Below, one piece after another: positions 8,115 through 60,439 of a stretch of DNA of 64,000 nt (positions are counted from its first letter, which is position 1; every line of letters begins with the position of its first letter). Under the pieces are notes generated by a model that was not told where the DNA came from, did not search any database, and saw only the letters and a program-made list of their open reading frames with translations. Source of the DNA: Squalus acanthias (Eukaryota). The stretch is from positions 66,838,001 through 66,902,000 of the forward strand of contig CM059432.1 of assembly GCA_030390025.1 (NCBI GenBank), read 5' to 3'. The position numbers were made by a program, and so were the translations under genes.

Positions 8115-8267
8115 CATGATTTTTAACCAGGTGATGCTCGACAATGTGATGCCATCAGAACACTGCAGAGTGGAACATTTATATATGTGAGAGCCACTGA
8201 AGGCAGCAGCTGCCATTGCACCACTCTATCGAAGTACCTTTAATTGCTATCAACTGCAATGACTAAC

Positions 8268-16816: not shown

Positions 16817-18557
16817 TGGGGGGAATTTTTCGGGGGGTCAGTGGGCTGGTCGGGTGGGAATTTATTTTTGACAACCCGCCTCCACACTAGTTTCCCAGAT
16901 GTTGGGTCTGTCATCGCTGAACAGACCCGACACCAAGCAGCGGGGGAGGCAATTTAGATTATTAAGAGGTTGTTAACAGGCACTTCAAAACTATTTTAAA
17001 CTCACCTTTAGATTTTAAGAGTTTGCCCACGGCTTCCCCGCTGCTCGGGGATCACGTCAGGTAAGGAGGTCGGGAGTTGTGTCAGCATGGGATGATTTCT
17101 TAACTTGACAGTTGCCAATCTTCTATAAAAGCTCCCATTTCATAGCTGTTCACTTTCCAAGGTTAGAAGCTGTTGCTTAATGCATTTGCAAGACAGGTTG
17201 AGCTTTATGTAGTTTGCAAGTGTTTGGAGCAAACTCTGTATCCAGCGACACCTCATTGGAACAACATATCTCATCATTGACAGATCGCTTCTGTCATCTC
17301 AACTTCACCTGCCATCTATTCCATCAGCATCATTGCCCTTGAAACTATCTCACCTTGATCCTCAGAATCCCACCACGATCAGCCCCAAAACCAGCAGCAC
17401 CAGGCACACCAGCAGCACTAACAACAACACCAACCTTCTCTGCAATCAACTGATGCTGCACAGGACACAGGGCATCAGCACCCAACCACATTGCTGCCCG
17501 GGAGGCCAGGGATGGCCTCACCATGGCCAGATTTACTTAATTTGTCGCTGTGCACCCTGGCTGCCACATGATGCGCCAGGTTGACAGCACCCCACACCAG
17601 CACCATAAAGCATTCCTACAATGCCCAAGCCATTCCTTTCACACTCATGACTATTGTGGGGGGTACCATTATGTTTCACCATTCACTGCAACTCACTAAG
17701 CCACTTCCAAAGGTGCACACAAATCTGTCCAAGAACACAAAGTGTGGAAAATAAAGATTTCAATGTTTGACAGCACATTACCATGAACTTCAAATGAACA
17801 TTGGCTAAAACACCCAAGTGCCTACCCTTGTGTGTTGTTACTTAGCATGATTGGACTAGGATGAGGGTGAGTGTGAGGGGTGGCTAGTGAGATGGGGATG
17901 TGATAATGTAGATAAATAGGGATGGGTGGAGGTACAAGTTAAGTTGGTGTGAGTAAGGATGTGCAGGAGTTGGGTTGGGAAGGCAGAGTGATGGGGATAT
18001 GATGAGAGGCACAGCAGGATGAGGTTGAGTATGGCTTTGCAATAACCTTTCGTGATCTACTGAGATCATTGAAAGGTTTGCGCCACTGCACCTGGTCCTC
18101 CTAACGACATCCCTGCTTGTGTGTAATGTGCAACTAGGCTGCGTTGATCTCCTGGGGAGGTCTCTTCTGCCCATGTGAAGGGAAGAGAACCTCCCTGTGT
18201 GCTGTGACTCCCTCCATAAGCATATGGAGGGAGTCATGGGAGAGCCTGGATGCAGCCGTGCACCTCTGTGCAGTGCTTGTCAGTGTTTGCAGCACCTCAA
18301 TGCTGTAGAACACTGACAGCACAACTGTCAAAATCAATTTGCACATGGTCCCTTTAAGGAAACCAGCTGATGACGCATCATCAAGTGATGTCATCAGACC
18401 CGCTTCCTTCAATTGGCCGGGAAATGCGCTGGGCGGGCTTAACAAGCCCAATCTGCATAAGATCACTTTGGACAGCGGGCTGGAGCCAGCAGCGGGGTCG
18501 CACCCCGCCACCGACCCCGGCTGCACCGGACCCACCGAGGTAGGCAAAATCGCGGCC
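16817..18557. mobile_element. Internally deleted Harbinger transposon with Myb/SANT-like remnant (minus, ~18030-18250)
   Basis: Right end aaaatcgcggcc; minus strand gives SHDSLHMLMEGVTAHREVLFPSHGQKRPPQEINAA and SRDVVRRT; ~17100-17470 resembles the Harbinger at 28007. Left boundary approximate. Confidence 0.6.
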
Positions 18558-23500: not shown

Positions 23501-24331
23501 ACTGGCCCTGAAAATGTGCAAGCCAGCAATCCCAGCACTTATGCTGATATCATGCCTTTAGGGAAACTCCACCACTGATCCTGATGAACTTTTCGGGATC
23601 AGAGGGAGGGTTCCTAATTTGCCGGCAAATGGACAGTGACTTTGCCAACAATAGCATATCTTGGGTGCCTGGCACATTTGAGGACATGGACAGTCCAGTG
23701 GAGGAGTACCAGGCCCTGGGGGGTGGGGCTGCTGGATCTGCCCTGGCAGAATTTTCTAAATGCTCGCTGTGACCCCCTTTGTAAAAGAGTCACCTTAAAA
23801 TCTGCAGAAAGAAAATCCCACCCTAGACCCCAGGTGTTCCCTACTTCTGCCCGTGTTCAGGAGGTATACCTGACCTGGCATATCACTCCCAACCATATAG
23901 CAGATCCCAACAAAGGCCAAATGCACAGGAGCACTGATGTTCAGAGTCCCCCCTCCCCCCGCCCAACTGCCTTCTCCCCCAACCCTACCCCTTATGCTGA
24001 TGGCTATATTTTGGGGGGACTGAGGCTCCACCCTAGCAGGCCATCTTGGGCTACTTTGGCATTAAGCCAAGATCCGACATATCCAAGCCTTGGCCTAATT
24101 TCTGGCTGTTCCAGCATAGTCTTGCCAAAGATATGGTAGCTCTGGATGCCTGCTCAAAATGCAAAGCCAGAAATGTCACACTTTCTGTAGTTTACACAGC
24201 ACTGGGTTACATTGTGCTCATTAGTGGCCACATCCTACAGGCAAAAACATTAGAGCTCAACAATGGAAGAAGGAACAGAAAATGCTGGAAATACTCAGCA
24301 GGTCAGGCAGCATCTGTGGAGAGAGAAACAG

Positions 24332-24368
24332 AGTTAACGTTTCAGGTCGATGACCCTTCGTCAGAACT
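24332..24368 (-). ncRNA. Minimal type I hammerhead ribozyme motif (Penelope)
   Basis: AGTT-CTGACGA-A-GGGTC atc GACCT-GAAACGTT-AACT: core boxes, stems I and II, palindromic stem III AACGTT. Confidence 0.75.
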
Positions 24369-25549
24369 GGAAAAAGCTGGAGATGGAACAGGTTTTTAAG
24401 CAAGTGCAGGGGCAGGGAAAGGGGGGAGGGGAGGAAAGAACAAAAGGGAAGGTCTGTGATAGGATGGAAGGCAGGAGAGATTAAGAGACAAAAGGGATGA
24501 TGGTGCAAGGCAAAAGGAGATGGTAATGGGACAAGTTAAGAAGCAAAAGATGACTCTAGATGAAGTGGAAATGGCACTGGCAGAATGAAAGACAGCTGTC
24601 ATGTGAGAGAGAGAGAAAAAAATGGAATAAAAAGGATAGGGGCAGAGGTTATGGTCTGAAATTGTTGAACTCGATGTTGAGTCCAGAAGGCTGTAAAATG
24701 CCTAATCGAAAGATGAAGTGCTGTTCCTTGAGCTTACGTTGAGCTTCATTGGAACAGTGTAAGAGGCCGAGGACGGTGAGGTCTGAATGGGAGTGGAGCG
24801 GAGAATTAAAGTGACAGGCGACCAGAAGCTCGGGGTCACCCTTACGGACTGAACGGAGGTGTTCCACAAAGCGGTCACCCAACCTGCGTTTGGTCTCCCC
24901 AATGTAGAGGAGACCACATCGTCAGCAGCGAATACAGTATACTAAATTGAAAGAAGTACAAGTAAATCACTGTTTCACCTGGAAGGAGTGTTTGGGGCCC
25001 TGGACAGTGGGAAGGGAGGAGGTTAAAGGGCATGTGTTGCATCTCCTGCGCTTGCACGGGAAGGTACCGGGCGAAGGGGAAGGGGTGTTGGGGGTGATAG
25101 AGGAGTGGACCAGGGTGTTGTGGAGGGAGTCATTCAGACCTCACTGTCCTCGGCCTCTTACACTGTTCCAATGAAGCTCAACGTAAGCTCGAGGAACAGC
25201 ACCTCATCTTTCAATTAGGCACTTTACAGTCTTCTGGACTCAACATAGAGTTCAACAATTTCAGACCATAACCTCTGCCCCTATCCTTTTTTTCCATTTT
25301 TTTTCTCTCTCTCACATGGCAGCTGTCGATCATTCTGCCATTGCCATTTACACTTCAGCTAGAGCCATCTTTTGTTTCTTAACTTGTCCCATTACCATCT
25401 CCTTTTGCCTTGCACCATCATCCCTTTTGTCTCTTAATCTCTCCTGCCTTCCATCCTATCACAGACCTTCCCTTTTGTTCTTTCCTCCCCTCCCCCCTTT
25501 CCCTGCCCCGACACTTGCTTAAAAACCTGTTCCATCTCCAGCTTTTTCC

Positions 25550-25586
25550 AGTTCTGATGAAGGGTCATCGACCTGAAACATTAACT
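25550..25586 (+). ncRNA. Minimal hammerhead ribozyme motif, stem III mutated
   Basis: AGTT-CTGATGA-A-GGGTC atc GACCT-GAAACATT-AACT. Confidence 0.65.
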
Positions 25587-26371
25587 CTGTTTCTCTCTCC
25601 ACAGACGCTGCCTGACCTACTGAGTATTTCCAGCATTTTCTGTTTTTATTTCAGATTTCCGGCATCCGCAGTATTTTGCTTTTGTGTTGTAATGGAAGAA
25701 GGAAATTCATCCTTACAATGACCAGATAAATGGAAAAAACTCAAAGCATCAAATGATTGTCTAGCTCTGGGCAGAAGGTGTTATTTTACTTGTGAATCAT
25801 GGGCTTCTTCAGGGAAAAGTTCAAGAAAATAATTCAAGAAGATAATCTGTCTTCAGAATAAGTCTACAACAGTGACAAGATAGGGTAATTGTGAAAAATA
25901 CTTTCTAGCAAGATGCTTGCTGAACTTGCTGAATTAACTGTATGAGTACAAGCAGAACAAAGTTTGTTTCATAATCCCAGGGTGCAGCAAGGACACAAAA
26001 ACTACCATTGAACGCTTTCAGGAAATCGCTGAAGCCATGAACTTTCAACAATTTTAAACACAAGTTCCTTCCTGTTTATTACAAAGTTCAGTCTAATACT
26101 TCAATGGGCATTAAGTTGTTCATAAAATGGTTGCATTCCAAATTTGTACCACTTAAATAGCAGGAGCTTCCTGCAAAAGTCATATCATAAACAATATTCC
26201 ACTGCAGCCTGCATGAGCTGCTTCATATTGGGACCATGAGGATTTTTTTCTTTCCCCATAACGGGATAGCACTGCTGCCTTCAATGCAGAATCTCAAGAG
26301 TGAGTATAAGTACCAGATGATGTCATCCCTCTTCACAGAGGTAGAAGAGAAAGCCTGATAGAGAGGAGAAT

Positions 26372-27135
26372 GGGGGAGAAATTCGGCATATTAGTGCCCC
26401 CAGTTGGCACCTGGCAGGGGCGCTAACATGCGCTCAGGCAGTAGCGCCGTGGTGGGGCAAACCCTGCGCCACACGGCAAATTTGCCGGTCCCGTAGCGCC
26501 GGTGATAACAGTTAGCACTTCGGCATCTTTCGCCATGCAGATCGTGATGTCAGCGAGTGTGCAATGCTCACTGGGCGCCCGATCTGCAAACTTCAGTAGC
26601 GGCCCCTGCCTTACTGCCTCGCGCCGACAGCGCCAGGGAGCGGAGGTGTGAACCAGCTGGCTGGCGGGGCGCTACTTAATGGGATGCGCCCCAGCTGTCA
26701 AGGAATTTCCGTTCCAAAGGTCAGTTATCAGTGGCAGAGAGCGCAGGATGTATCTGCAGCCAAATAAAGGCTGCTTAGTCCCCGGAGTGTTGCGGGCCGT
26801 CAAAGGACTTTGCATTTCATCCCACGGCATATCGCCGTTCTGCACTCCCCGAACCATTGGGGGCTGGTGTGCGGACTCCAATGACCCTCCCCTTTAATGG
26901 CTGGAAGGTGCCTTCCTCAATGCTCACTCCCGATTACACAACACCTGATATTTCTTATCACTTGGAGCCTAACGACACTCATCTATGGCATGAGCACCTG
27001 ATTTAGCACTCCCCTGCATTCTTTGAATACTGAGACTGAATTTAGTGGGCTGTGAGATTGATTAGCACCTGACGCTAAACTTCCAACTTCTCAAAAGTTA
27101 GCACCCTTTCCTGGGCACTACTGAATTTCGAGCCC
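26372..27135 (+). mobile_element. Harbinger-type MITE family B, copy 1
   Basis: TIRs GGGGGAGAAATTC / GAATTTCGAGCCC; full-length inverted copy at 27223-27995. Confidence 0.85.
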
Positions 27136-27222
27136 ATTAGTCTGACGGAATAATTCAAAACCATCAATGTGAAGGCTGCCATCTACTGGGCAGCATTTAC
27201 ATAGGACAATAGAATCGTATAT

Positions 27223-27995
27223 GGGCTAGAAATTCAGTAGCGCCCAGGAAGGGGTGCTAACTTTTGAGAAGTTGGAAGTTTAGCGCCAGACACTAATCAA
27301 TCTCGCTGCCTGCTAAATTCAGTCTCAGTGCTCAAAGAATGCAGGGGAGCGCTAAATCAGGTGCTAATGGCATAGGTGAGTGGCGTTAGGCTCCAAGCGA
27401 TAAGGAATATCAGGTGTTGTGTAATCGGGAGTGAGCATTGGCGAAGGCGCCTTCCAGCCATTAAAGGGGAGGGTCACTGGAGTCCGCACACCAACCCCCA
27501 GTGAATCGGGGAGTGCAGAACGGCGATATGCTGTGAGATGAAATGCAAAGTCCTTTGATGGCCCGCAACACTCCGGTGAGTAAGCAGCCTTTATTTGGCT
27601 GCAGATACATCCTGCACTCTCTGCCACTCATAACTGACCTTTGGAACGGAAGTTCCTTGACAGCTGGGGTGCATCCCTTTAAGTAGCGCCCTGCCAGCTG
27701 CCAGCCTACTGGTTCACGCCAATGCTCCCTGGCACTGTCGGCGCGAGGCGGTAAGGCAGGGGGCACTACTGAAGTTTGCAGATCAGGCTCCCAGCGAGCG
27801 TTGCACACTCGCTGACGTCACGATCTGCATGGCGAAAGGTGCCGAGACATTAATTGTTATCGCCGGAGCTACGGGGCTGGCGAATATGCCGTGTGGCACA
27901 GGATTCACCCTGCCACGGCGCTACTGCCTGAGCGCCCCATTAGCGCCCCCCGCCAGGCGCTAACTGGGGCCGCTAGCATGCCGAATTTCTATACC
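27223..27995 (-). mobile_element. Harbinger-type MITE family B, copy 2 (inverted relative to copy 1)
   Basis: TIRs GGGCTAGAAATTC / GAATTTCTATACC; reverse complement of 26372-27135 along its length. Confidence 0.85.
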
Positions 27996-28730
27996 ATAGA
28001 ATCATAGGCCGGAATTTTACCGTTGCCGTACATGCGGGTTTGGAAGCGGGTCGGCAGTAAAAATGTCAGAAATAGCCACCGCATCGGGAACCCTCCGTCA
28101 TCCCACCACCTCGCGTATTTAATTCGGGTGGCTTTGAAGGCGCGACATGGACCCGGTCGGCAGAGGCGAGTGACCTCATTGAAATCATTAAATGTTTGTT
28201 TGCAGACCCTTAAAAGTGATTTTTACACCAGCTTTTGAGCTTTACTGCAAGAGCATGGGATTCACGGAGGTCGGGTACCTCGCCTGTGAAGGGGAGGCGG
28301 AAGCTCAGTGGCCATTGGCGAGTTCATTCATTGACAGCTGGGAAAAGCACATAAATACTGTAACATTACACCTCATTACTTGCCTCATGGAAAGGCTCTT
28401 GCTCACTCCATTTTGTCCAGAGATTTGGGTGTCTGCTGCTTGCAGGTCATTTTTGAAACCTCGAAAGCCACTCTCACCACATTGCTACTCACTATCACAA
28501 CATTGAGGGACTGGCCCTCAGATCATAACTTTACTTGCCATCTACTACATCAGCATGGGTGCCGCTTATACTGTCTCACCATGGTCCTCAGAATCAGACC
28601 AATATGAGCTCCACCCCCATCAACACCAGCCAAAACACCAACAGCAGCAGCCACACCACCAGCAGCAGCAGCAGCAACCACAACAGCAGCCTTCTCCTCA
28701 ACGACCTGATGCTCCACAGGAGAGAGGGGG

Positions 28731-30292
28731 TGTAAGTTTTTATTTCAACTGGCATTAAATTGACAGAAAGACCAATTCTTTTGAAACAACTTGGAATATG
28801 TTTATTAAACACACAAACTCATGCACATTAAAACAATAGCCTACTGGTATTTATGGACTCTACTCGATTACAACACGTAAGGTAATGGGTTAGATTTACA
28901 CAGCCTGGTACTTCCCTGAGTTAAGCAATGCATGCGGCCTTTTTCCTTGCTTCTTGGTCTGTAGAGGGAGGGCTTCTTGTTCTTCCGCATGGTCGTCCAG
29001 AGCGAGAGAGAGAGCGAAAGAGCCTTTGGGTTCCTTGTTTTATATCTTTTTAAGTCCATTCAGTATCGCCCCATTTGGGGCGCAATTATCGGCCGGGCGC
29101 AAAGATTAGCGCCTGGCACTAATTATCGCCTCCGACTGCAAACTTGGCTTTTATCGCCCCTGGAGGTGATTGGAGCGCTAAATCAGGCGCTTCACACCTG
29201 TCTTAAGGCGCAAAGGCCGAGGAGCGAGGCGCTACCTCAGAGTGCTGGCGAAGCTCATGTAATGTCAGTTAGCAATGGAACAGAGACACAATGGCCCCGG
29301 CCAGTTCTTAAAGGGGAGGGTTGATCTTGCTCTCCATCCACATCCTGCTCATTGCAGCCTTGAATCTCGGCCTGGAGAGACCTGTACATCAAATCTGCTG
29401 GAAAGAACAATGGAGAGTACCAGGGAAAGAGCTCAGAGTGCAGCCCCCACAGTCTCTTCTAAATCGATACAAGGAAGGGCAAATCAAACTGAACCTGCAA
29501 AGTGCTGCTCAGTACCCAAAACTCCTTCACACAGCATTGAATCTCTCCAGAAGTCTCTCTCTCTCTCTCTCTCTCAGAATGCGTGGTGCAAAAATGTCAC
29601 CAACAAAAAAAGGCAGGAAGCGTTCGCCTTTAAATAGCGCTCCCCCAGTCCCTTCATGACTGCAAAACGCTCGCCTCAACCTGTCGTTGCTAGCGGCAGG
29701 CGGTAAGGCAGGGGGCGCCACTCAATATCTGCCTCGGGGCGATACCGGGGCGTTGCGCACTCGACTGACGTCACGATCTGCCGGCGCAGGGGATCGTGGA
29801 GGTAGTGTTTAGCACCGCCGCAAAATGTCTAGTTAATTTCGCGAGCGGCGCAAACATCGCCGCGCCCGGGCGCTAGTTGCTTCACGCCCCATTAGCGCCC
29901 TCTTCAGGCGCTAACAGGAGGCGCAACCAACTGAATTTTCCCCCCATTGTCTCTACTCTAAATTGCTAAGACCCCAGGATTGGGTCTTAGATTCATGGCT
30001 GTTCTTGATTGGCTTTCCTTTGAACATGTGTCTGTCTGCAGTGGCTGGTGCCATTTCTTGCTTAAGTTAATTGTTTGTTGACACCTTTTAGTTGCTCTTG
30101 AGTTTCGATGGTGAGTTTTGATGGTGTCTCTGTGGGGGGTTATCCTGTTATGCAGGTTTCCTTTGTTAAATTTTGCGTCGTTGCCTTACCCAGGGGAGAT
30201 CCATACAAATCAAATTTATCTTTATTACATACATCTTATATTAATAGTCTCGAGTCCATCACACATACAAAACATATCTTTTTATTCTTACA
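28731..30292 (-). repeat. 3' LTR (~680 bp net, interrupted by a MITE)
   Basis: Matches 37407-38672; minus-strand AATAAA at 28801-28806; PPT caaagcggggaatc immediately adjacent (30293-30306, minus). Confidence 0.95.
29061..29944 (+). mobile_element. MITE family A, copy 2, inserted in the 3' LTR
   Basis: Close copy of 7234-8114 with the left TIR clipped. The empty site aagtccattgtctc is visible in the 5' LTR at ~38318-38331. Confidence 0.9.
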
Positions 30293-30547
30293 GATTCCCC
30301 GCTTTGAGGGGGAAATATCCTTATTGACCCCTCATTTGGTTTATCTCCTCAGGGCTCGCATATGGTGGTTCAGTTTCCTAAGGAGTTTTCGCAGGTAGCA
30401 GATCATGATAATCCCCACCACTACAATTATGGCTTGTGCCAGTATCATAAGCATTGAGAGGGTTCTGAGCCAGGGGTGTTGTCCTACATTATACATTGTT
30501 TCCCACCATGGGCTGGCTCCTAGCTTTTGTATAGCTCTGCTGTTTAT

Positions 30548-31642
30548 CGACTGTCGATCGACAGTTCCGACGGGCCACTGCGAAAAACCGCATATACCTC
30601 CTCAGAAGACGAACACGGGACACAACCAACAGAGTACCCTACGTCGTCCAGTACTTCCCCGGAGCGGAGAAACTACGCCATGTTCTTCGCAGCCTTCAAC
30701 ATGTCATCGATGACGACGAACACCTTGCTAAGGCCATCCCCACGCCTCCACTACTCACCTTCAAGCAGCCGCCTAACCTCAAAAGTACCATCGTTCGCAG
30801 CAAATTACCCAGCTGTCAGGAGAACAGCGACCACGACACCACACAACCCTGCCACGGCAACCTCCGCAAGACATGCCAGATCATGGACACAGATACCGTC
30901 ATCACACGTGAGGACACTACCCACCAGGTACATGGTACATACTCATGTGACTCGGCCAACGTTGTCTACCTGATACGTTGCAATAAAGGATGCCCCAGAG
31001 CATGGTACATCGGCGAGACCATGCAGACACTGAGACAACGTATGAACGGACACCGCGCAACAATCGCCAGGCAGGATGGTTGCCTCCCAGTCGGGGAACA
31101 CCAGCAGTCAAGGGCATTCAGCCTCGGATCTGCGGGTTAGCGTTCTCCAAGGCGGCCTTCGGGATACACGACAATGCAAAATCATCGAGCAGAAACTGAT
31201 AGCCAAGTTCCACACTCATGAGGACGGCCTCAATCGGGATATCGGGTTCATGTCACGCTACAGAACGTGACTTGACATCGTTGCCTGTCTTTCCAGCTTT
31301 TTAAAAAAACAAACACAAGAAACAAACACAAGAAACAAACCCAAATGGAGAGGATATGCAGCCAGCAGGTGTTTTGACATGTTGGACCCCCTGGGACACA
31401 TCTCATTGTCTTGGCTGTGCTCTTAGTGTGTCTTTGATGTAGGGAAAGATTGAATCTCTGCATTTTCTCTGTGTTTATATTCTGTGAATTCTGGTAGATC
31501 CTCTCACAGTAACTCTACCTGAAGAAGGGGCAGGATAGCTCCGAAAGCTTGTAATTTTAAATAAATCTGTTGGACTATAACCTGGTGTTGTGCGACTTCT
31601 CGTTTTTGTCCACCCCAGTCCAACGCCGGCATCTCCGCATCA
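30548..31642 (+). mobile_element. 5'-truncated Penelope-like element (second family)
   Basis: GIY-YIG: NVVYLIRCNKGCPRAWYIGETMQTLRQRMNGHR...EQKLIAKFHTHEDGLNRD; 15-bp TSD agctctgctgtttat / agatctgctgtttat (30533-30547, 31643-31657); 16-bp palindrome at the 5' junction. Confidence 0.92.
31516..31553 (+). ncRNA. Minimal hammerhead ribozyme motif (Penelope)
   Basis: TAC-CTGAAGA-A-GGGGC aggata GCTCC-GAAAGCTT-GTA; palindromic stem III AAGCTT. Confidence 0.75.
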
Positions 31643-31720
31643 AGATCTGCTGTTTATGGCATTGTTCTGTGTCATCTGTATCCGTATCATGGTCCTGTGG
31701 GAAACAAGATCAGTGTAGTA

Positions 31721-34700
31721 TTTACTCTTTGGCAGTTTTTAACTGGTTAATATATCATTTCTTGTACTTAATGCCCTTTCCCCCCGGTAACTGAATCAAA
31801 TAAACCGCGGGGTTTTTTCGGTCTATAATCGTATGCGGTCCCCACCACCTGGGCTCAAAGGCAGGCTTCTTTTTCCCATAATTTGGAATCATTACGGTGT
31901 CCCCCACCTGATACTCAAAGGGACGTACTTTCTTGTCAAAGTACCTTACTTCCCCAATTTCGTGGCCACAAATCGATTCATCTGATCGGTGTGATCTACC
32001 AATTGTTCCAGCCACTTGGAACTACATGGTTCCATAGTCAAGGGGCTCATCCCCGTTAGTGTTAGCTGGCCTGGCGTTCTCATGAGTCTCCCAGTCATGG
32101 CCTGATATGGGGAGACTCCTGTTGTTTTATGAGGTGTGGACCTCATTGCCATTAAGCACATTGGCAGCATGTTAGCCCATTGAGTGGGGTGGTCCGCACA
32201 CAATTTTTTTAACATTAACTTGAGGGTCCTGTTCTCCCTTTTGACCCCTCCGGACGACTGGGGGTGGTGAGCAATATGGAGTTTGTGTTTTATCCCCAAC
32301 ATTTCCTGCAGGTGGGTAAAAATCTTACCGGTAAAGTGCGAACCTTGATCCACTTGTACCGGTACTCCCCACCCTCAAAACATATGATTTAATAGTGTTT
32401 TGGCTGCCGTGATTGCGGTGTTGGAGCAGCAGGGGAATGCTTCGATCCATTTAGTGAATTGATCCACCACCACTAGGGCATGCTGAAAATTGCCTTGTAC
32501 CTGTGGAAGTGGCCCAATGAAGTCTGTCTGGAGGTGAGTCCATGGCCCTTGAGGTGGGGGCGCGCTTTGAAGCAAGGCTCGGTTAGTGCATGTGGGAGGA
32601 TTGTGCTGCAGGCACGGTAGGCATCGTGCCACATATAGGTTGATTGTTTCCCTCATGGAAGGCCACCAAGCTGTGGATGCTACATTATAGAAGGTTACCA
32701 GGCCCGAATAGTGCCCTGCCGTGGGGTGGGAGTGAAAGAGGGAGAGCAGTTCCTGACCCACCTCTGGTGGAACACACACCACCGGCTTTCTTTTGAACAT
32801 CAGCAACTGCTCCGCTGAGTCAGGGGCAGTGGCTAGTATGGTATTGGGGGCCCAGGCTGTCGGTTGAGGAAGGGGTCTGCCTTCCTCGTGCCAGGTGCTT
32901 ACAATGGTGTATGGCCAGTATTGCTGCTGCAGGGATTTTAAATCGAGGTGATCTGTTGGGGAACCCTTGCCAACAGCATTGCAGGGCTCAACAACTATAT
33001 CCTCTATCTCCCCATTAATCGCAACGTCCTTGGCTGCTCTGTCTGCTCTGTAATTTCCCTCACTATGTGGACCCCCTTTTCTATGGGCTGCTACCTTTCC
33101 TATGAAGCAGGGCTGGGATCACTGTTTAAGGTATGACCAGAGCAGGCATAACCAGGGCCCATGGACCAGGGCCTTACCGTCTATTGTACGGTAGTCATTT
33201 CTGTGGTATAGGGGCAAGGAGAGCATGGTGTTTATAGCATAGTCACTATCAGACAAAATATTCACGGGTCTATCTGAGGTTTCTTTCACGGCAGTTAGAA
33301 GTGCGGCGATTTCTGCATATTGTGAGGACTGTCGGTTGCATCATCGCTGGATGGTTCTCTCTGGCAATACCACAGCATACCCAGTGTGGGGGGATCCCTC
33401 GATGTGATATGAGGACGCATCGATGTAGACATCTGGGCCTCTCTGTATGGGCTCTTTCTGCACAGGATGGGTCTCAAAGTTAATCAGGGGTAGTGGACAT
33501 TCATGCGGTTCCCCCTCATAAACCAGAAATTGTGGCAGCAATGTGGTTTGGAAATGATACCAATGTCTCTTTCCATAAATTCCAATGTCCATTTGCTGAG
33601 GTGCTGCGAGGAAACTAGCGAATCTCCAGGTTTCATCAGTAGGTTTAGAGGCGTTGTGTGCACTGTGAAGGATGGTCGCTTGTAGCCCAGAAATAAAGGT
33701 AAAATGATGTACCGCCCAGAAGACGGCCAGCAGGTGGCATTCGCACGCGGTATACGGTCTTTTCTGCCCCCTGCAGGATTGGAGACGCATATGCAATGGG
33801 CTGTAGTCGATCAGCTCGCGTTTGGCACAGAACTGCGGCGAGGCTTTGTTCTGTGGCCCCAACCTCCAAATGGAAGGGCTGCGTGGGATCCGGAGGAATC
33901 AGACATGCGGCCTGTATCACTGCAATTTTTAATTTGGCTGCGGACTGGGTGTGAGCATCAGTCCATGCCGGGTGTATGTCATCACCCTGCAGTTTTATCA
34001 AATCATACAGGGGCTTTGCGCACTCTGCAAAGCCTGGGATAAAGTTCCTTTGGTACCCCACCAAACCCAAGAATGATTGTAGGGCTGTTTTGGAAGTGGG
34101 TAATGGTAGTCGCTGTATTATCTCCACCTTGTGGGAGTCGGGGGACGTTCCCTCTGGAGAAATGGACAATCCCAGAAAGGTGACCCGTTCTTTTACCAAC
34201 TGAGCCTTACGGGGATTCACCTTTAGTCCCGCCTGAGCCAACAATGTCAACAGTTCATGCAAAAGGGACAGATGCTCCTCCATGTTATCGGTTGCCAGCA
34301 GTAGATCGTCTACGTACCGTAGCAAGCAGGTAGGGCAGGAAAAGTCTTTTAAAACTGCAGCCATTCTTTTGTGGAAGATTGTGGGGGCATTGTGGAACCC
34401 CTGAGGCAGGCATGTCCAAGTGTAGCTCTGGTCCTCAAATGTGAACGCAAATTTGTACTGGTCCTCCCTTTTAACAGGGATACTCCAGAATCCATTGGCG
34501 ATGTCGAGGGTCGAGAAGTACTTCGAACCAGCAGGAATTTGAGATAATATGGTGGGAGCTTCTCTTACTACCGGTGAGCAGGCTGGCGTTACAGAATTTA
34601 ACTTCCTGTAATCAATAGTCAGTCGCCAGCTGCTATCAGGCTTTTTAACTGGCCATGTGGGTGAATTGGTTGTGAAAGTGCCTGTCCTAACAACACCCTG

Positions 34701-35362
34701 CTCGACCAGGGATTTTATGGTGTCTCAGATGTAAGGGTGACTCTCCCTTGGGATGGGGTACTATTTAGTGAGTGAGTGGGGGGGGGTCCCTCAATAGACT
34801 CTTCACCCGCCATTTTTCCACAATCGTGCTTGTACGTGGCAAACACCGTTAGGTGTTCCTGAATTAGTTTTGCCACAGCTTCATTTTCGCTCCCCGGAGG
34901 GTCATACTCGGATGGCTTTTTAATAGCAAAAACAGAGTGAGCATCTGAAATTTCTATCACTTTTGCATTATTTCTCAATCCCATCCAAACACAGTCCCGG
35001 TTGTAATCTATTACCGCGCCATACTGATCCAACACATCAGTCCCTAAAATTCCCCTTCCGTCGGGGGTGGTCATCAGCATCGGCGCTGGGACCTTGCAGG
35101 TGAGGCCTCCCAACTGAAGTTCAGAGGTCTTCCCCGTATACGCGGTGGTTGTATCACCATTAAACCCTTTAAGGGCCATACAACCCTTGCCCGCTGCTGC
35201 ATGGCATTCAGGGTATGGGGTGTGGATGATGGTAACGGCTGAGCCAGTGTCTATAAGCATAATCTGCTGCCGGCTCCCTTTTAAGACAACAAGGACTACT
35301 GGTCTCCCGCTACCATCACATTGGAACTCCACTTCCGACCAATCTTTGGGGGTCAAACCCCC
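31721..35362 (-). pseudogene. pol: aspartic protease, RT, degenerate RNase H (tether), second RNase H, integrase; frameshifted
   Basis: LIDTGSAVTII; LPQGFHNAP / YVDDLL; FHLEVGAT...PIAYAS; YIDASS...SSQYAEIAA...ILSDSDY...KVAAH...GNYRADRAAK; HSHPTAGH..CLPC, TDFIGPLP, DQGSHF, WWGPH. Confidence 0.93.
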
Positions 35363-37280
35363 TCATAGGGTGGATCCTTGGAGGGGTCCTTCCAATGGGT
35401 GTGCATTGACGATAGGATTTTGCATTCCCAATGGGTGTGCATTGGCGATTGCGTGCACCGGTAAATGATTTTGCATCTCCCCCGTGACAATTTGGGCTTT
35501 CATGAGGGTTATCAACTGGTCCAATCGTTGATCCGTCCCAGAGGGCTTGGATTCATCCTTTTTTAGAAGGGTAACTAACTAAGCCAATTGTTGTTCCATC
35601 CCAGAGGGTTTGGGTTCGTCCCTCGGGAGGTATCTATGCGTTGCATCGTGGTCTGTATGGGTCTCCTGCAGTGTTTTGCTAGGTGACCTTCCTTCTTACA
35701 ATTAAAGCACTGTCCCCTAAAGGGGTAGTACCGAGATCCCTCCACCGCTGACACTGGTTTCTTTGCGGTGGGTGGTGACTTCACCTTTAACTGGTCTTTT
35801 ACCATCTCCCAGGCTCTTTGAACGTCAGTCTCTATATCTGTCCACTGATCGGTGGGCCTCACGGCTATACCCAGGGTAGTTTTAACTAAAGAGTGGAGTT
35901 GGGTCAGGAACATCATTTTGAATTGTTCCTGATTCTTTCCTGCTGCAGTATTTGCGGGTGCCTGGTTCTGGGTACATTCATAGATATCGTACAGGCGATT
36001 ACTGAAGGCTCTAGGGGTCTCATCTGGGCGCTGTTTGGTCTGACTAAGCATAGCCACTAAGTTTAAGTTCTGGATCCCTAAATGGTTTAGGACCTCGGTC
36101 ACGACTACATCAGTCGCTGTGCCACGCTGGAGGATCGCGTCTGGCAGATTATTCTTTAAAGAAGTGGAACAGGCCAAGAGGAGGACTCGTGTTAAGTCTC
36201 CCTCTTCTAACTCGGGGTGACCCGTCCTGAAATCTGCCCACCTCCTATTAACTACCAGTGGGTCATCCCCATCATTAATGGGCCCCAACTCGTGGCTACA
36301 CGCCGTGGCGTCAGCACCAGATATGGGCCGTGAGTCGGTATGGTTACTAGTGATGTGACCATGCACATTACGCCGTAAAGAGGTGGTCACTATTGCTATG
36401 GTTGGCCCTTGTGTCTCCAAGGTATCCCATCCTTCACCGCCCTCCTGGGGATTATACTGACTGCCTTTCTCTTCCCAATCTGTCTCCCCCTCGTCTCCTT
36501 CTGTTGTCTCTGTTATGGCTCCCCGTGTTACTGCGGATACTAGAGCCTGTTGCTGCCCTAATTTACTCTTTAGCTGCGTTATTTCTAGGTGTCACCAGGA
36601 GTGGTCTGCCTCCCTATGTGGCTTCTTAATTGCTTCCCTTAATGCCTCCCTAACGTCTTCTACTTCCTGCCCGAGCCCCAGGTTTTCCAATTTATATTTC
36701 TTGAGCTCTAACCTCGTTTCATTTGCTGCTGCGACTGCTGCTCCTGCATTTAAATTTAAGAGGCTTTGTTGCTGTAGCAATGAAGCTGCCTGCTCGGCTC
36801 CTCTTCCAATTGTCTGATACTGTGGCCTAATCGATCGATTTCTTGTCTCAAATGCTGGATTTCTCCCTCCTTTGACTGCCTAACAAGCTGGATGCTTTCT
36901 TCTTTCTGTTCTTTCATACTTTGAATCTCTTTTTCTTTTAGTTGAATCTCTTTGGCTTTTAGTTCTTTTAAATCTTGTATCTCTCCCTTTAAATCGCGAA
37001 TCTCTTTTGCATCCTGCCTCATTAATTCCTCATCTCTCCGAGCACAGTAATGTGCCCTGAATGCCAAAAGACCGTTTGCCTGTTTGGGCCTTAGCTTTTC
37101 CTCATCTACCCTCTCCTGGATAAATGCCACGAGCTCTCCAAAGGACGCATGTTGGCCCTTACAGATGCATCGTGCCCGTAACTCTTGTAAGTCCCTTATG
37201 GATACCTTTTCATATGTTTTTTCATGGTAGGCTACAGCTATGTCTTTTGCTGGCTTTTTGTATGCCCCCGATCCCTTCAT
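35363..37280 (-). pseudogene. gag: N-terminal coiled coil, capsid-like region, CCHC zinc knuckle; frameshifted
   Basis: ATG at 37280 (MKGSGAYKK), heptad-rich KEIRDLKGEIQDLKE..., TKQRPDETPRAFSNRL (MHR-like), CFNCKKEGHLAKHC. Confidence 0.88.
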
Positions 37281-37384
37281 CCTATGTCTTTTGAATTTAC
37301 TTATAAACTTCGCACCACAGGTTAGAATCGCAACTCCCGAAATTTTCAATTGTTTAAAAGAATGATCTAAAGCTGTCTCGCCAG

Positions 37385-37402
37385 ATCCCGGACGAGCCCC
37401 CA
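37385..37402 (-). other. Primer binding site for tRNA-Pro
   Basis: TGGGGGCTCGTCCGGGAT, the canonical 18-nt PBS-Pro (as in MLV), 4 nt downstream of the 5' LTR. Confidence 0.95.
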
Positions 37403-37652
37403 ATTTTGTAAGCTTTTTATTTCGACTGGCATTAAATTGACAGCAAGACCAATTCTTTTGAAACAATTTGGAATAAGTTTATTAAACACACAAACTCATG
37501 CACATCAAAACAATAGCCTACTGGTATTTATGGACTCTACTCGATTACAACACGTAAGGTAATGGGTTAGATTTACACAGACTGGTACTTCCCTGAGTTA
37601 AAAATGAGAAGTCGCACAACACCAGGTTATAGTCCAACAGATTTATTTAAAA

Positions 37653-37692
37653 TTACAAGCTTTCGGAGCTATTCTGCCCCTTCTTCAGGTAA
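37653..37692 (-). ncRNA. Minimal hammerhead ribozyme motif
   Basis: TTAC-CTGAAGA-A-GGGGC agaata GCTCC-GAAAGCTT-GTAA on the minus strand. Confidence 0.75.
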
Positions 37693-38040
37693 AGTTACAC
37701 TGAGTGAATCTACAAAAGTTCACAGAATATAAACACAGATACTGCAGAGATACAATCCCTGGAAGGAGCTTCAGGTGAAGAAGTTGAGGGCGGTGGTGAC
37801 TTTGATAGCCACTGGTAAGACATGTCCACCAGGTCCTCTGGACAGCAGGTCTTGTTCCAGCAAGCTACAAATGTCTGCGACGACCTGGCACAATAGTTTC
37901 AGCCTCCTTTGGCACTGCTGCTCAGTTATGTTGAGGAAGCTCACATTTGCGGGATCTCACAGTTGGCCTCCCACAGATTGTATCTCTGTAGTATCTGTGT
38001 TTATATTCTGTGAACTTTTGTAGATTCACTCAGTGTAACT

Positions 38041-38080
38041 TTACCTGAAGAAGGGGCAGGATAGCTCCGAAAGCTTGTAA
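38041..38080 (+). ncRNA. Minimal hammerhead ribozyme motif
   Basis: TTAC-CTGAAGA-A-GGGGC aggata GCTCC-GAAAGCTT-GTAA. Confidence 0.75.
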
Positions 38081-39913
38081 TTTTAAATAAATCTGTTGGA
38101 CTATAACCTGGTGTTGTGCGACTTCTCATTTTTGTCCACCCCAGTCCAACGCCGGCATCTCCGCATCATTCCCTGAGTTAAGCAATGCATGCGGCCTTTT
38201 TCCTTGCTTCTTGGTCTGGTCTGTAGAGGGAGGGCTTCTTGTTCTTCCGCGTGGTCGTCCAGAGAGAGAGAGAGAGAGAGCGAGAGAGCCTTTGGGTTCC
38301 TTGTTTTATATCTTTTTAAGTCCATTGTCTCTACTCTAAATTGCTAAGACCCCATGATTGGGTCTTAGATTCATGGCAGTTCTTGATTGGCTTTCCTTTG
38401 AACATGTGTCTGTCTGCAGTGGCTGGTGCCATTTCTTGCTTCAGTTAATTGTTTGTTGACACCTTTTAGTGGCTCTTGAGCTTCGATGGTGAGTTTCGAT
38501 GGTGTCTCTGTGGTGGGTTATCCTGTTATGCAGGTTTCCTTCGTTAAGTTTTGCACCGTTGCCTTACCTAGGGGAGATCCATACACATCAAATTTATCTT
38601 TATTACATACATCATATATTAATAGACTCGAGTCCATCACACATACAAAACATATTTTTTTTTATTCTTACAGGGGGCACCACAGGGCTGCAGCACATTG
38701 GAGACGATACCCCCAACATAGGGTATACAGGCAGAGGATGAGCTTCCTCAACATAACTGAGCAGCAGTGCCAAAGGAGGCTGAGACTATTGTGCCAGGTC
38801 GTCGCAGACATTTGTAGCTTGCTGGAACAAGACCTGCTGTCCAGAGGACCTGGTGGACATGTCTTACCAGTGGCTATCAAAGTCGCCACCGCCCTCAACT
38901 TCTTCACCTGAAGCTCCTTCCAGGGATCTGCAGCAGACATTTGCGGGATCTCACAGTCAGCCTCCCACAGATGCCTCACACAGGTCACCGATGCCATGTT
39001 TCACAAGTCAGCCAAATAGATCAACTTTGCCACTGAAGAGGCCAGTGTTATTGAGTAGATGCTGCAAGGTGGGAAAGAAGAGAACTTTGAGTGAGAGTGA
39101 TGGAATGAGTGTAAGGAATGGATGGGCTACATCTGTGGAGGGTGACTATGAGGGAATGGGGTGACAATGCCAAATGGCCTCCTTCTGTGGTGTTACTTGC
39201 TATGATTGCATTAGGATGAGGTTGAGTGTCAGGGGTGGTTAGTCAGATGGGGATGTGAGTATGTACATAGAGAGAGAGGGATGGGTGGACTTGGGAGGTG
39301 TGCAGGAGTAGGCTTGGGAAGGCAGAGTGATGGGGATGTGATAACAGGCACATCAGGATGAAGGTGAGTGTGGCTTTGCACTCACCTTTGCTGACCTCAT
39401 CAGATCATTGAATCTCTTCCTGCACTTGATCCAGGTCCTCCTCATAACCTCCCTGCTGCTGACCTCCTCTGCTATTTCCAGCCAGGCCCTTTTGGTCTCT
39501 TGGCGAGGTGTCTTACGCCTATCTGCTGGGAAGAGGACCTCCCTGCATGCTCTTACTGCTTAACCAGAATATGCAGTGAGACATCTGTAAAGCAGGGTGT
39601 AGCCAACTGCCTTTGGGTATTCATATTTTTCACTTTGCACAATAACTCCAACCTTTCCAATGTTCATTCCACACTCCTCTTCCAACCTTCAAATGAGTTG
39701 TGTGCAAGGCTGTTTTAATTAAGGGTGCTGGAAATTAGTCATCGATGATGTCATCAGACCCATCTGATAGGGCTGGGAAATGCACATGGCTGGTTTAATT
39801 TGGGCCATTGCGCTAAAGTCGCTCTGAAAAGCGTGCTGATCAAGACATCGCATTCCTGACCCGCTACGCAGCCCGCACGCACCCATCCCGACTCAGATGT
39901 AAAAATTCTGGCC

Positions 39914-41320
39914 ATAGAATCATAGAAATTTACAACGAAGAAGGAGGCCATTTGATCCATTGTGTCCGTGCCGGTCGAAAAAGAGCTATCCAGCCTAATC
40001 CCACTTTTCAGTTCCTGGTCCGTAGCCTTGTAGGTTACAGCACTTCAAGTGCATATCCAAGTAGTTTTTCAATATGATGAGAGTTTCTGCCTCTTTCACC
40101 CTTTCAGGCAGTGAGTTCCAGACCCTCACCAACCTCTGGATGAAAAAAGTTCTCCTCAACTCCCCTCTAATCCTTCTACTAAATATTTTAAGTCTATGCC
40201 CGTTTGTTATTGACCTCTCTCCTAGGGGAAATAGGTCCTTCCTATCCACTCTATCTAGGCCCCTCATAATTTTATACACCTCAGTCAAGTCTCCCCTCAG
40301 CCTCCTCTGTTCCAAAGAAAACAACGCCCAGCCTATCCAATCTTTCCTCATAGCTAAAATTCTCCAATTCGGGCAGCATCCTCGGAAATCTCCTCTGTAC
40401 CCTATCTAGTGCAATCACATCGTTCCTGTAATCTGGTGACCAGAACTGTACGCAGTACTCTAGCTGTGGCCTAACTAGTGTTTTATACAGTTCAAGCACA
40501 ACCTCCCTGCACTTACATTTTTTGCCTCAGCTAATAAAGGAAAGTATCCCGTATGCCTTCTTAACCACCTTATCTACCTGTCCTGCTACCTTCAGGGATC
40601 TGTGGACATGCACTCCAAGGTCCCTCTATTCCTCTACACTTCTCAGTATCCTACCATTCATTGTATATTCCCTTGCCTTGTTTAGCCCTCCCCAAATGCA
40701 TTACCTCACACTTCTCTGGACTGAATGCCATTTGCCACTTTTCTGCCCACCTGACCAGTCCATTGATATCTTCCTACAGTGTGCAGCTTTCTTCCTCACT
40801 ATCAACCACACGGCCAATTTTTGTATCATTTGCAAACTTCTTAATCATGCCCCCTACATTAAAGTCTAAATCATTGATATATACCACAAAAGCAAGGGAC
40901 CTAATACTGAGCCCTGTGGAACCCCACTGGAAACAGCCTTCCAGTCACAAAAACACCCTTTGCTTCCTGCCACTGAGCCAATTTTGGATCCAACTTGCCA
41001 CTTTCCCTTGGATCCCAAGGGCTTTTACTTTTCTGACCAGTTTGCCATGTGGGACCTTGTCAAAAGCCTTGCTAAAGTCCATGTAGACGACATCAAATGT
41101 GTTAACCTCATCAACCCTCCTTGTTAATGCCTCAAAAAATTCAATCATGTTTGTCAGACACGACCTTCCCTTAACAAATCCATGCTGACTGTCCTTGATT
41201 AATTTGTGCCTTTCTAAATGACGGTTAATACTGACCCTCAGAATTTTTTCCAATAACCACCAAGGTTAGGCTGACTGGTCTAATTACTCGGTCTATCCCT
41301 TTCTCGCTTTTTAAACAACG
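39914..41320 (-). mobile_element. 5'-truncated CR1 LINE
   Basis: ORFs 40945-41253, 40281-40499, 39995-40351 (DFSKAFDKVPH, RPQLEYCVQFW); (atagaatc)n tail continues at ~27996-28006 beyond the Harbinger insertion. Confidence 0.93.
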
Positions 41321-41554
41321 TACCTTGGGCCGCATTCAGCAAGTATCGGAAACAGCTGTGACCTAATATCCAAACAAGCATGAATGCTTGCAAATTTGAG
41401 GCTGCAGCTTTTACCTGGCATTGTGTATGAAGAATGCATATCATTGAAGAATGAACTAGGATGATGCCTGGAATGAGAGGATACGGTTAGTAATAGAGAC
41501 TTAGAAAAATCATGTCTATCCAAAATTCAAAGCAGAAAGCAATTTTTTTATTTT

Positions 41555-44500
41555 TTTATTCGTTCATGGGATGTGGGCATCGCTGGCAAGGCCAGCATTT
41601 ATTGCCCATCCCTAATTGCCCTTGAGAAGATGGTGGTGAGTCGCTGTCTTGAACTGCTGCAGTCCGTGTGGTGAAGGTACTCCCACAGTGCTGTTTGGGA
41701 GGGAGTTCCAGGATTTTGACCCAGCGACGATGAAGGAATAGCAATATATTTCTAAGTCAGGATGGTGTGTGACTTGGAGGGGAACTTGGAGGTGATGGTG
41801 TTCCCATGCGCCTACTGCCCTTGTTCTTCTATGTGGTAGAGTTTGCGGGTTTGGGAGGTGCTGCCGAAGAAGTCTTGGTGAGTTGCTGCAGTGCATCTTG
41901 TAGATGGTACACACTGCAGCCACAGTGCGCCAGTGGTGGAGGGAGTGAATATTTAAGGTGGTGGATGGAGTGCAAATGAAGCGGCCTGCTTTGTCCTGGT
42001 TGGTGTCGAACTGCTTGAGTGTTGTTGGAGCTGCACCCATCCAGGCAAGTGGAGAGTATTCCATCACACTCCTGGCTTGTGCCTTGTAGATGGTGGAAAG
42101 GCTTTGGGGAGTGAGGAGGTGATTCACTCGCCGCAGAATACACAGCCTCTGACCTGCTCTTGTAGCCACAGTATTTATGTAGCTGGTCCAGTTAAGTTTC
42201 TGGTCAATGGTGACCCCAGGATGTTGATGGTGGGGGATTCACCGATGGTAATGCCGTTGAATTTCAACGGGTGGTTAGATTATCTCTTCTTGGAGATGGT
42301 CATTGCCTGACACTTTTGAGGTGTGAATGTTACTTGCCACTTATCAGCCCAAGCCTGAATGTCGTCCAGGCCATGCTGATGTGGGCGCGGACTCTGAGGA
42401 GTTGCAAATGGAACTGAACACTGTGCAGTCATCAGCGAACATCCCCACTTGTGACCTTATGGTGGAGGGAAGGTCATTGATAAAGCAGCTGAAGATGGTT
42501 GGGCCTAGGACACTGCCCTGAGGAACTCCTGCAGCAATGTCTTGGGGCTGAGATGATTGACCTCCAACAACCACAACCATCTTCCTTTGTGCTAGGTATG
42601 ACGCCGGCCAGTGGAGAGTTTTCCCCCTGATTCCCATTGACTCCAATTTTAATAGGGCTCCTTGATGCCACACTCAGTCAAATGCTGCCTTGATGTCAAG
42701 GGCAGTCACTCTCACCTCAGCTCTGGAATTCAGCTCTTTTGTCCATGTTTGGACCAAGGCTGTAATGAGGTCTGGAGCCGAGAGGTCCTGGCAGAACCCA
42801 AACTGAGCATCGGTGAGCAAGTTATTGGTGAGTAAGTGCCGCTTGATAACACTGTTGACGACACCTTCCATCACTTTGCTGATGATTGAGAGTAGACTGA
42901 TGGGGCGGTAATTGGCTGGATTGGATTTGTCCTGCCTTTTGTGGACAGGAAATACCTGGGCAATTTTCACATTGTCTGGTAGATGCCACTGTTGTAGCTG
43001 TACTGGAACAGCTTGGCTAGAGGTGTGGCTAATTCCGGAGCACAAGTCTTCAGCATGACAGCCGGGATGTTGTCGGGACCCATAGCCTTTGCTGTATCCA
43101 GTGTAATCATTAATTTCTTGCTATCACGCGGAATGAATCGAATTGGCTGAAGACTGGCATCTGTGATGGTCGGGACCTCAGGATGAGGCCAAGGTGGATC
43201 ATCCACTCGGCACTTCTGGCTTGTCTTTTGCGCTCACATGCTGGGCTCCACCATCATGGAGGATGGGGATCTACATGGAGCCTCCTCTTCCCGTTAGTTG
43301 TTTAATTATCCCCCACTATTCATGACTGGATTTGGCAGGACTGCAGAGCTTTGATCTGATCCGTTGGTTGTGGGATTGCTTAGCTCTGTCTATAGCATTC
43401 TGTTTTCGCTGTTAGCATGCATGTAGTCCCATGTTGTAGCTTTACCAAGTTAGTACCTCATTTTTAGGTACGCCTGGTGCTGCTCCCAGCATGCTCTTCT
43501 GCACTTCTCATTGAACCAGGGTTGTTCTCCTGGCTTGAATGGTAATGGTAGAGTGAGGGATATGCCGAGCCATGAGGTTGCAGATTGTGGTGGAATACAA
43601 TTCTGCTGCTGCTGATGGCCCACAGCGCCTCAGGGATGCCCAGTTTTAAGCTGCTAGATCTGTTCTAAATCTATCCTATTAGCATGGTGGTAGTGCCACA
43701 CAACACAATGGAGGGTGTCCTCAGTGTGAAGCTGGGACTTCGTCTCCACAAGGACTGTGGTGATCACTGCTACCAATACTGTCATGGACAGATGCATCTG
43801 TGACAGGTGGATTGGTGAGGACGAAGTCAAATAGGTTGTTCGCTCGTGTTGGTTCTCTCGCCATCTGTCACAGGCCTAGTCTGGCAGCTATGTCCTTCAG
43901 GACTCGGCCAGCTCCGAGCCACTGTTGTTGATGGACATTGAAGTCTCCCAGCCAGAGAACGTTTTGTGCCCTTGCTACCCTCAGTGCTTCTTCCAAGTGG
44001 TGTTTAACATGGAGGGGTACTGATTCATCAGCTGGAGGGCGGGCGGTAGGTGTTAATCAGGAGGAGGTTTGCTTGCCCTTTTTGGTTTGTCCTGTTGCCA
44101 TGAGACTTAATAGGGTCCAGAGTCAATGTTGAGGACTACCAGGGCCACTCCCTCCCAACTGTATACAACTGTGCTGCCACCTCTGGTGGGTCTGTCCTGC
44201 CAGTGGGACAGGACATACCCAGAGATGGTGGAGTCTGGGACATTGGCTGAAAGGTATATTACTGTGAGTATGACTATGTCAGGCTGTTGCTTGACTAGTC
44301 TGTGGGACAGCTCTCCCAATTTTGGCACAAGTCCCCAGATGTTATGGAGGAGGACTTTGCAGGGTCGACTGGGCTGGGTGTGCCTTTGTCTTCTCCTGTG
44401 CCTAGCTCAATGCCGGGTGATCTGTCCGGTTTTATTCTTGGTACACTTCTTCGTAGCAGTTTGTTACAACTGAGTGGCTTGCTAGGCCATTTCAGAGGGC

Positions 44501-59990: not shown

Positions 59991-60439
59991 TGAGAAAAAT
60001 ATATTTTGTAGGCTTTTCAGTGGAATAGGCCTTTTAGATTCAAAGTTATTCTTGTCAGCAGTTTGTGTAACTGTCATTGTACACCTATGTCAGAAGCCAT
60101 TTTTGTCTAAGTGGTTATCTTATGTTTATGGGATCAAATGGGAATCGTAGGTTGACTGTTTCTGCCTATTTTGGAATGTGTGGGAGTTGTTAGGATGGTA
60201 CTTGGCTTGGGGAAACATTGAAATCTATTGACATACAGGCACAAAAGCAGACTCAAGTTCCCATAATATAATTTAATATGAGTGATTTAATGTATATAAG
60301 GCAGACATAAAGCATTGAATATTTCACATCGAAGTGGAATGGGACACGCTCAGGTGTTACCACAAGGCCATTCGAGATCGACCACCTCAAAATCTTATAG
60401 ATGTTAGGAGTTTGTATCTCTTTTTTTTTACAATATTAT

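Follow-up and report, generated by a model that had tools for sequence, protein, structure and literature searches.

In the accessible sections of two published accounts (PMC8557442, PMC3846280), the standard layout of a Penelope-like element (PLE) insertion includes an inverted, truncated copy and a tail of 30-40 nt on one end, and the available parts of PMC8557442 and PMC11167929 treat the closing of such head-to-head insertions as an unsettled matter. In Adineta vaga, unique spacers of 0.9-1.5 kb lie between the pseudo-LTRs (pLTRs) of Pen1, and an NRPS gene has been mobilised in trans (PMC3846280, in the portion available). For L1, templated insertions have been recorded in 22 cases, usually below 250 bp in length and with a template no more than 15 bp from the insertion (bioRxiv 2024.08.27.596794), and in 3 cases together with multi-piece local examples (Fig. 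S10 of PMC11702581), and co-insertion of a local pre-mRNA was reported in 1 clone (PMC10191854), as far as the accessible text of these studies goes. Our literature search, which left most subscription journals outside its reach, returned no PLE insertion with a mapped target-adjacent donor.

Here we describe a 580-bp head-to-head Penelope-like insertion in a repeat-rich, 64-kb stretch of Squalus acanthias DNA (the window, whose own coordinates are used throughout). It lies inside an LTR of a Gypsy-type element, is bounded by a 13-bp target-site duplication (TSD), bears a 35-nt tail at the outer end of the right arm only, and holds between its arms a spacer that matches, in two pieces of opposite orientation, a Harbinger-like transposon copy beside the target (Table 1). 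With head-to-head EN+ Penelope/Poseidon insertions (Pen2a_Av, PMC3846280; PMC8557442; PAc, PMC11167929) it shares, in the sections of these accounts open to us, the inverted 5'-truncated copy, the TSD, the tail of 30-40 nt on one end (35 nt here) and a hammerhead motif in the pLTR; it differs from them in that the inverted copy there is "immediately adjacent" or overlaps in a short palindrome, whereas here 224 bp of non-PLE DNA, for which a local donor is mapped, occupy the inversion point. The A. vaga spacers are likewise unrelated host sequence between pLTRs within a TSD, but the pLTRs there are mostly direct, the arrangement is read as mobilisation in trans and the accessible portion of PMC3846280 names no target-adjacent donor, whereas the present donor is a neighbour of the target and nothing suggests that the unit has moved again. 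The short copy of a target neighbour, the TSD, the microhomology at the joints and the intact donor recall the L1 templated insertions as they appear in the partial accounts cited, from which the locus departs in being a PLE, in a donor 0.56-0.79 kb away and in a spacer that sits between two arms rather than at the 5' end. With L1 twin priming, as described in the same partial sources, it has in common a single template copied as two adjacent pieces that face opposite ways, a short stretch lost where the orientation changes and a join of low homology; the template here, however, is host sequence, and both primers would be PLE cDNA ends and not target DNA ends.

Table 1. Features of the insertion, its target and its donor (window coordinates; a point marks features given without strand)
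Feature	Positions	Strand	Remarks
Harbinger-like DNA transposon, split by Gypsy	28007-39913	.	TIR-like ends, 3-bp ATA on both sides
LTR of Gypsy-type retrotransposon, host of the insertion	37407-38673	-	Partner LTR 28731-30293
Left TSD copy	37589-37601	.	13 bp, TTCCCTGAGTTAA; terminal AA overlaps arm end (2-nt microhomology)
Left PLE arm, inverted, tail-less (3' pseudo-LTR end)	37602-37757	-	Inner end is GAT in common with spacer
Left-arm minimal hammerhead-type motif (predicted)	37653-37692	-	Pattern search
Spacer piece 1, inverted copy of 38739-38927	37755-37943	-	187/189 identical; 9/9 listed family-discordant letters donor-like
Spacer piece 2, direct copy of 38938-38972	37944-37978	+	33/35 identical; 1/1 listed family-discordant letter donor-like
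Right PLE arm, direct	37975-38168	+	35-nt tail 38134-38168; first 4 nt (AGAT) in common with spacer
Right-arm minimal hammerhead-type motif (predicted)	38041-38080	+	Pattern search
Right TSD copy	38169-38181	.	13 bp, TTCCCTGAGTTAA
Donor of piece 1	38739-38927	+	Decayed transposase-like frame; derived TGA at 38909-38911
Uncopied donor stretch between pieces	38928-38937	+	9-10 nt
Donor of piece 2	38938-38972	+	Source of 37944-37978

Three elements are nested, the PLE insertion lying in the right-hand LTR of the Gypsy-type element and the latter in the Harbinger-like transposon. The Gypsy-type element (28731-38673, minus strand) has matches to reverse transcriptase (RT), RNase H, integrase and zinc knuckle and a flanking G run, and its LTRs are identical at 651 of 676 positions. 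A non-coding-looking element of 890 bp occurs in three copies that are 92-93% identical (7234-8117, 29058-29947 and 60438-61331), one of them inserted in the left Gypsy LTR. PIF/Harbinger elements are defined by a Myb/SANT frame beside a transposase frame and canonically have short TIRs and a 3-bp TSD of the TAA/TTA type. At this locus the TIR-like ends measure 14-15 nt and lie in repeated context, and a Myb/SANT frame on the minus strand (39353-39559) matches PF13873 at 31.3 bits (cut-off 21.7). The transposase-like frame gave no Pfam match, and none of 23 candidates was a homologue at E<=0.001; the segment 38675-38908 gave an atlas lead to eukaryotic clusters including DUF8040 (score 0.92), and we take the donor frame to resemble HARBI1-type N-termini.

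The target sequence occurs once in the partner LTR, at 28912-28924, and this is the empty site. The corresponding empty join, from 37588 to 38169, was carried by at least 3 contigs of one run (X15) and at least 4 of another (X17), with none in contigs of X1 or X2, all among the 15 of 173 joints listed; the TSD that the sequence-only reading had placed around the unit thus holds, with a single occurrence in the partner LTR and the empty join in two of four runs.

The arms agree with one another at 151 of 153 positions (37602-37754 against 37979-38131), and the right arm matches, at 181 of 194 aligned bases, the 3' end (31447-31642) of a PLE copy at 30.5-31.6 kb whose frame has a Pfam GIY-YIG match (E 3e-4) of 21.4 bits, slightly below the cut-off of 22.6. 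The 182 nt between that frame and the arm continue into family sequence, as seen at a contig loose end before 37975, and the window holds no reverse transcriptase region of this PLE family. Loose ends of family contigs cluster behind 38169 and are heterogeneous near 37607 (among the 24 of 2255 listed), so that the clusters fall at or near both outer ends used by the insertion. A minimal hammerhead pattern, which agrees with the description in PMC4209133, has four matches on the two strands of the window, all of them in PLE arms (two here and two in a second PLE family); an Rfam search at the locus returned no hammerhead and no family, its two matches being at chance level. We assign the arms to the ends of an EN+ Penelope-like element, the hammerhead being a predicted motif. 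Hammerhead cleavage was considered as the origin of the common inner end and rejected, the expected cut at about 38076 being some 100 nt from that end.

The same-family copy at 30536-31657 lies in the internal region of the Gypsy-type element, is 5' truncated, has a 12-bp TSD and carries at its 5' end a perfect 16-bp palindrome that is likely a small fold-back. At the presumptive nicks of both same-family insertions (37588-37602; 30535-30548/31645-31658) the next base is G (AA^G, AA^G, AT^G and GA^G), an observation on four sites only that may be due to chance.

The spacer has a close counterpart in the donor. Piece 1 is the reverse complement of its source with two differences, exactly as the sequence-only reading had it, and these are transitions at source positions 38784 and 38885; for piece 2 that reading gave the correct coordinates and passed over two differences, at 38958-38959, where TG stands in the copy for CA in the donor. 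All six differences at the locus (four between spacer and donor, two between the arms) are transitions, unaccompanied by indels; independent loss of a single CpG, in opposite directions in the two copies, would account for the CA/TG pair, and 38885 likewise fits CpG decay. Spacer and donor agree over as much as 100 nt without a break, whereas in 200 shuffles of the spacer, searched over the flanks (33000-43000) on both strands, the longest exact run never exceeded 16 nt and averaged 10.7 nt, which excludes a chance match; within the 64-kb window we saw neither a comparable match to the spacer elsewhere nor a second unit of arm, spacer and arm. Before the insertion the donor lay 557-791 bp from the target site, nearer than the figure of about 1 kb given at first. 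It has been kept whole: 38674-39043 is one read-through frame in which the 10 skipped bases are present, as expected of a copy and not a cut.

The identity of the donor was assessed with contigs of four coded runs aligned on 37400-39199 at 85% likeness, from which 40 of 111 letter rows were listed. Ten listed rows within 38739-38972 are sites at which the donor is at odds with its family, and at all ten, the TGA included, the spacer has the donor letter; at nine of the ten, each of the four runs has the family letter in the majority, and at the TGA position 38910 the non-donor letter makes up 99.1-99.7% of depth, where contig depth is not equivalent to copy number and the runs appear to be without this locus. 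One further site, visible from the spacer side only, also agrees with the donor. Because family contigs overwhelmingly carry the other letter, the in-frame TGA after NFFT, which had already been noticed in both donor and copy, is a derived state common to the two; the earlier attribution of the source to the neighbouring Harbinger-like copy also stands, and the ten letters indicate that the spacer was templated by this very copy and not by a paralogue. A distant, near-identical Harbinger copy as donor, or a unit that arrived ready-made from another locus, might be entertained on the grounds that family members are plentiful in each of the four runs, that a recent duplicate of this locus is conceivable and that the runs come from relatives or other individuals (share of words <=0.46). 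We consider it very improbable, however, since the ten discordant letters agree with a copy 0.6 kb away and the sole other Harbinger-like relative in the window (16952-18237) is 61-73% identical and has no alignment over the donor segment.

No contig bridging any of the three inner joints was present among the 32 of 74,143 pieces listed, and these joints therefore rest on the assembly itself. Two of the runs (X1 and X2) have no depth for the window letter at several LTR positions, so that the locus seems to be absent from both, and missing contig cover of the locus is evidence in neither direction. Genome assembly is known to be difficult at inverted PLE structures (PMC8557442, accessible sections), and an assembly chimera would account for the lack of bridging contigs; it would not create a 13-bp TSD, an asymmetric tail or family-typical ends, and the restriction of all six differences to transitions, with a CA/TG pair and a position 38885 that fit CpG decay, also speaks against an artefact, which we regard as extremely improbable.

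At the joint of left arm and spacer we count 3 nt of microhomology (GAT, donor 38925-38927), at the right joint 4 nt (AGAT, donor 38969-38972) and at the middle joint, at 37943, 1 nt, in place of the 1-2 nt of the initial description; the counts of 3 and 4 arise because the PLE itself continues ...AAAGAT/TG, as seen in the 31.4 kb copy and in contig loose ends. The proposal that the arms are cut at the identical nucleotide is accordingly true only within the 3-4-nt ambiguity that this microhomology creates. Read in sense orientation, both PLE/spacer joints consist of donor plus strand, then GAT, then PLE.

Divergence between the arms (2/153, 1.3%) and between spacer and donor (4/224, 1.8%) is indistinguishable (Fisher p = 1.0), the intervals being wide at 0.2-4.6% and 0.5-4.5%, respectively. 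The LTR pair differs at 25 of 676 positions (3.7%), and the comparison of pooled arms and spacer with the LTR pair is borderline (p = 0.058). Judged by these counts, arms and spacer are probably younger than the LTR pair, and templating of the spacer close in time to the PLE insertion is supported. In the layout, the TSD, the local donor and the near-equal age of arms and spacer, taken together, we have high confidence. Joints of 1-4 nt and templates close at hand are generic marks of repair. They could thus stem from a later, unrelated event in which an older asymmetric PLE insertion was broken and then patched by MMBIR or by polymerase-theta-type switching from nearby DNA, a history for which the wide divergence intervals leave room. 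The patch, however, lies exactly at the inversion point, the arms end in the same trinucleotide, the TSD is intact and the apparent age of the spacer equals that of the arms, and we hold such a history to be improbable.

The two pieces of the spacer derive from adjacent, non-overlapping stretches of donor, lie in opposite orientation with a loss of 9-10 nt, and both of their joints to the PLE connect the same PLE trinucleotide with a plus-strand GAT. In the available parts of the L1 literature, twin-priming inversions have deletions of 1-10 bp in 22 of 32 cases (PMC11702581), and the median deletion at inversions is 14.5 bp (bioRxiv 2024.08.27.596794). We favour, while giving it about an even chance, a reading in which two PLE ends each captured one plus-strand template and were then joined. 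The PLE endonuclease would nick both target strands, 13 nt apart, and PLE RNA would template the extension of both 3' ends, with copying begun at the tail end for one of them and at an internal start about 35 nt upstream for the other, which would result in two cDNA ends of identical sequence, ...ACAATC(T)-3'. Each end would land on the donor plus strand by way of its 3-4-nt microhomology, at AGAT 38972 and at GAT 38927, and copy leftwards; the first would halt after 35 nt (38972->38938), 9-10 nt before the second landing site, the second would copy 189 nt (38927->38739), and the ends would be joined over 1 nt before the gaps were filled. Since both joints attach PLE to the plus strand, two growing ends could each copy that strand leftwards, and the opposite orientation of the pieces in the product would then need no second template strand. 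The template may have been a local plus-strand transcript or exposed plus-strand DNA; 5' resection from the insertion break would remove the plus strand, from which we infer a transcript, an R-loop or a sister strand. The polymerase may have been the PLE RT or a host repair enzyme, between which the sequence does not discriminate.

In favour of capture by two ends, a PLE protein in purified form nicks each of the two target strands and extends both, uses two start sites that bracket the tail and is predicted to be a dimer, according to the accessible sections of PMC11167929; contigs of the present family terminate in numbers at the tail end as well as close to the tail-less end, and the two head-to-head insertions of the second PLE family in the window have the same tail asymmetry. 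Against capture by two ends, both ends must stop at the same PLE position, which calls for either a shared RNA end or breakage in the middle of a perfect palindrome, and in the window's other two head-to-head insertions the inner ends are unequal, lying about 35 nt apart in one and about 340 nt in the other. The capture of two ends also leaves as coincidence the likeness of the landing sites, whose 12-mers match at 9 of 12 positions, a level reached by 36 of the 1991 GAT-ending 12-mers in the window. That the identical ends arose during integration is a tentative proposition, to which we give clearly less than an even chance; that they arose shortly afterwards, when a palindrome that was perfect at first broke at its centre, seems quite unlikely, and centre-break outcomes, mostly asymmetric deletions (93% of 118) with gain of a spacer uncommon in the available part of PMC8701086, count against it. 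Inspection by eye found no plus-strand host gene over the locus, and LINE orientation was judged to be uninformative. The only exon-like segment noticed lies on the minus strand at 14629-14887; it has a signal-peptide-like start, a strong splice donor at its end and CpG-rich DNA upstream, and it probably represents the initial coding exon of a host gene directed away from the insertion.

The sequence-only reading had proposed serial switching in two orientations; its neighbour-templated copy is retained, but the serial use of both strands is not required, as two plus-strand copies explain the product equally. A serial route with snap-back is nevertheless a close rival, which we hold to be possible but doubtful. 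In it, a nascent strand would copy the PLE from the tail, jump to the plus strand at 38972, switch to the minus strand at 38739, run to 38927 and fold onto its own PLE/spacer joint, where it would make sense-strand PLE, and that strand would anneal to cDNA primed from the other nick. Identical inner ends and the likeness of the landing sites would be explained directly, the joint at 37978 is the best ungapped register on the nascent strand for the observed 3' end (9/12, the next being 6/12; duplex -7.5 kcal/mol), the same-family copy at 30.5 kb has its 16-bp palindrome at the 5' end and junction palindromes have led to the proposal that PLEs prime themselves (PMC3846280, in the portion available). 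However, in a scan of 188 possible end points and 214 registers, the path offers stronger fold-backs at earlier points, among them one at 38913 (11/12, with 8 matches terminal) and one at 38855 (9/12, likewise with 8), and unless the PLE part was shielded the register used therefore has nothing that sets it apart; the route also requires the growing end to move 200 nt and onto the opposite strand with 1 nt of homology, and leaves the adjacency of the pieces, at 9-10 nt, to chance.

Whichever route was taken, the event is target-site templating and not transduction of host DNA by the element, as had been suggested at first, because the copied DNA comes from beside the target site and not from the surroundings of a donor element: it lies 5' of both arms, and no PLE sequence adjoins the donor. 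As to fillers in other insertions, which the sequence-only reading had raised, a host spacer was found in one of the four PLE insertions examined in the window, the present one; the others are those at 30.5-31.6 kb, 24.3-25.7 kb and 0.5-0.7 kb, and further fragments may have been missed. The second PLE family supplies a control at 24262-25704, a head-to-head insertion whose TSD measures 14 bp and whose arms, of about 855 and about 560 nt, each hold a hammerhead motif, with the tail on the right arm and no host spacer; the 341-nt middle of its palindrome was considered as host filler and rejected, being PLE coding sequence. A small head-to-head insertion of the same second family at 535-681, on the opposite strand, has inner ends about 35 nt apart, no spacer and no clear TSD. 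An exact 21-nt arm pattern had no match in metagenome contigs. The window also contains a long palindromic, MITE-like element (26430-27935) with arms of about 710 nt that are 86-92% complementary and a distant likeness to the 890-bp element; its 83-nt spacer (27138-27220) has no match in the window.

In summary, local templating has left a real and well-resolved footprint at this PLE insertion, a single locus for which two mechanisms remain. It is one decayed site, at which a fragment of a dead transposon was copied into an LTR, and no function is implied. Local templating itself is known for L1; what appears to be new here is a PLE with a mapped local donor. A spacer of known donor records where each cDNA end went, and such loci can therefore serve as a test of two-ended versus self-priming models: in a PLE-rich genome one can count which template strand was used, how large the gap is and whether the inner ends are equal. 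The footprint also documents one way for host DNA to end up between two pLTRs, an arrangement thought to allow mobilisation in trans. A more general proposal, which we advance as unlikely on present data, is that in a PLE dimer both RT subunits, each with a cDNA end, might jump onto a nascent transcript, or its displaced DNA strand, near the target and twin-copy it, and that this might be a regular means of closing PLE insertions. If that were true, the capture of unspliced local host sequence between inverted pLTRs would be the entry step both for pLTR-flanked host spacers and for the intron-containing genes that PLEs reportedly move.
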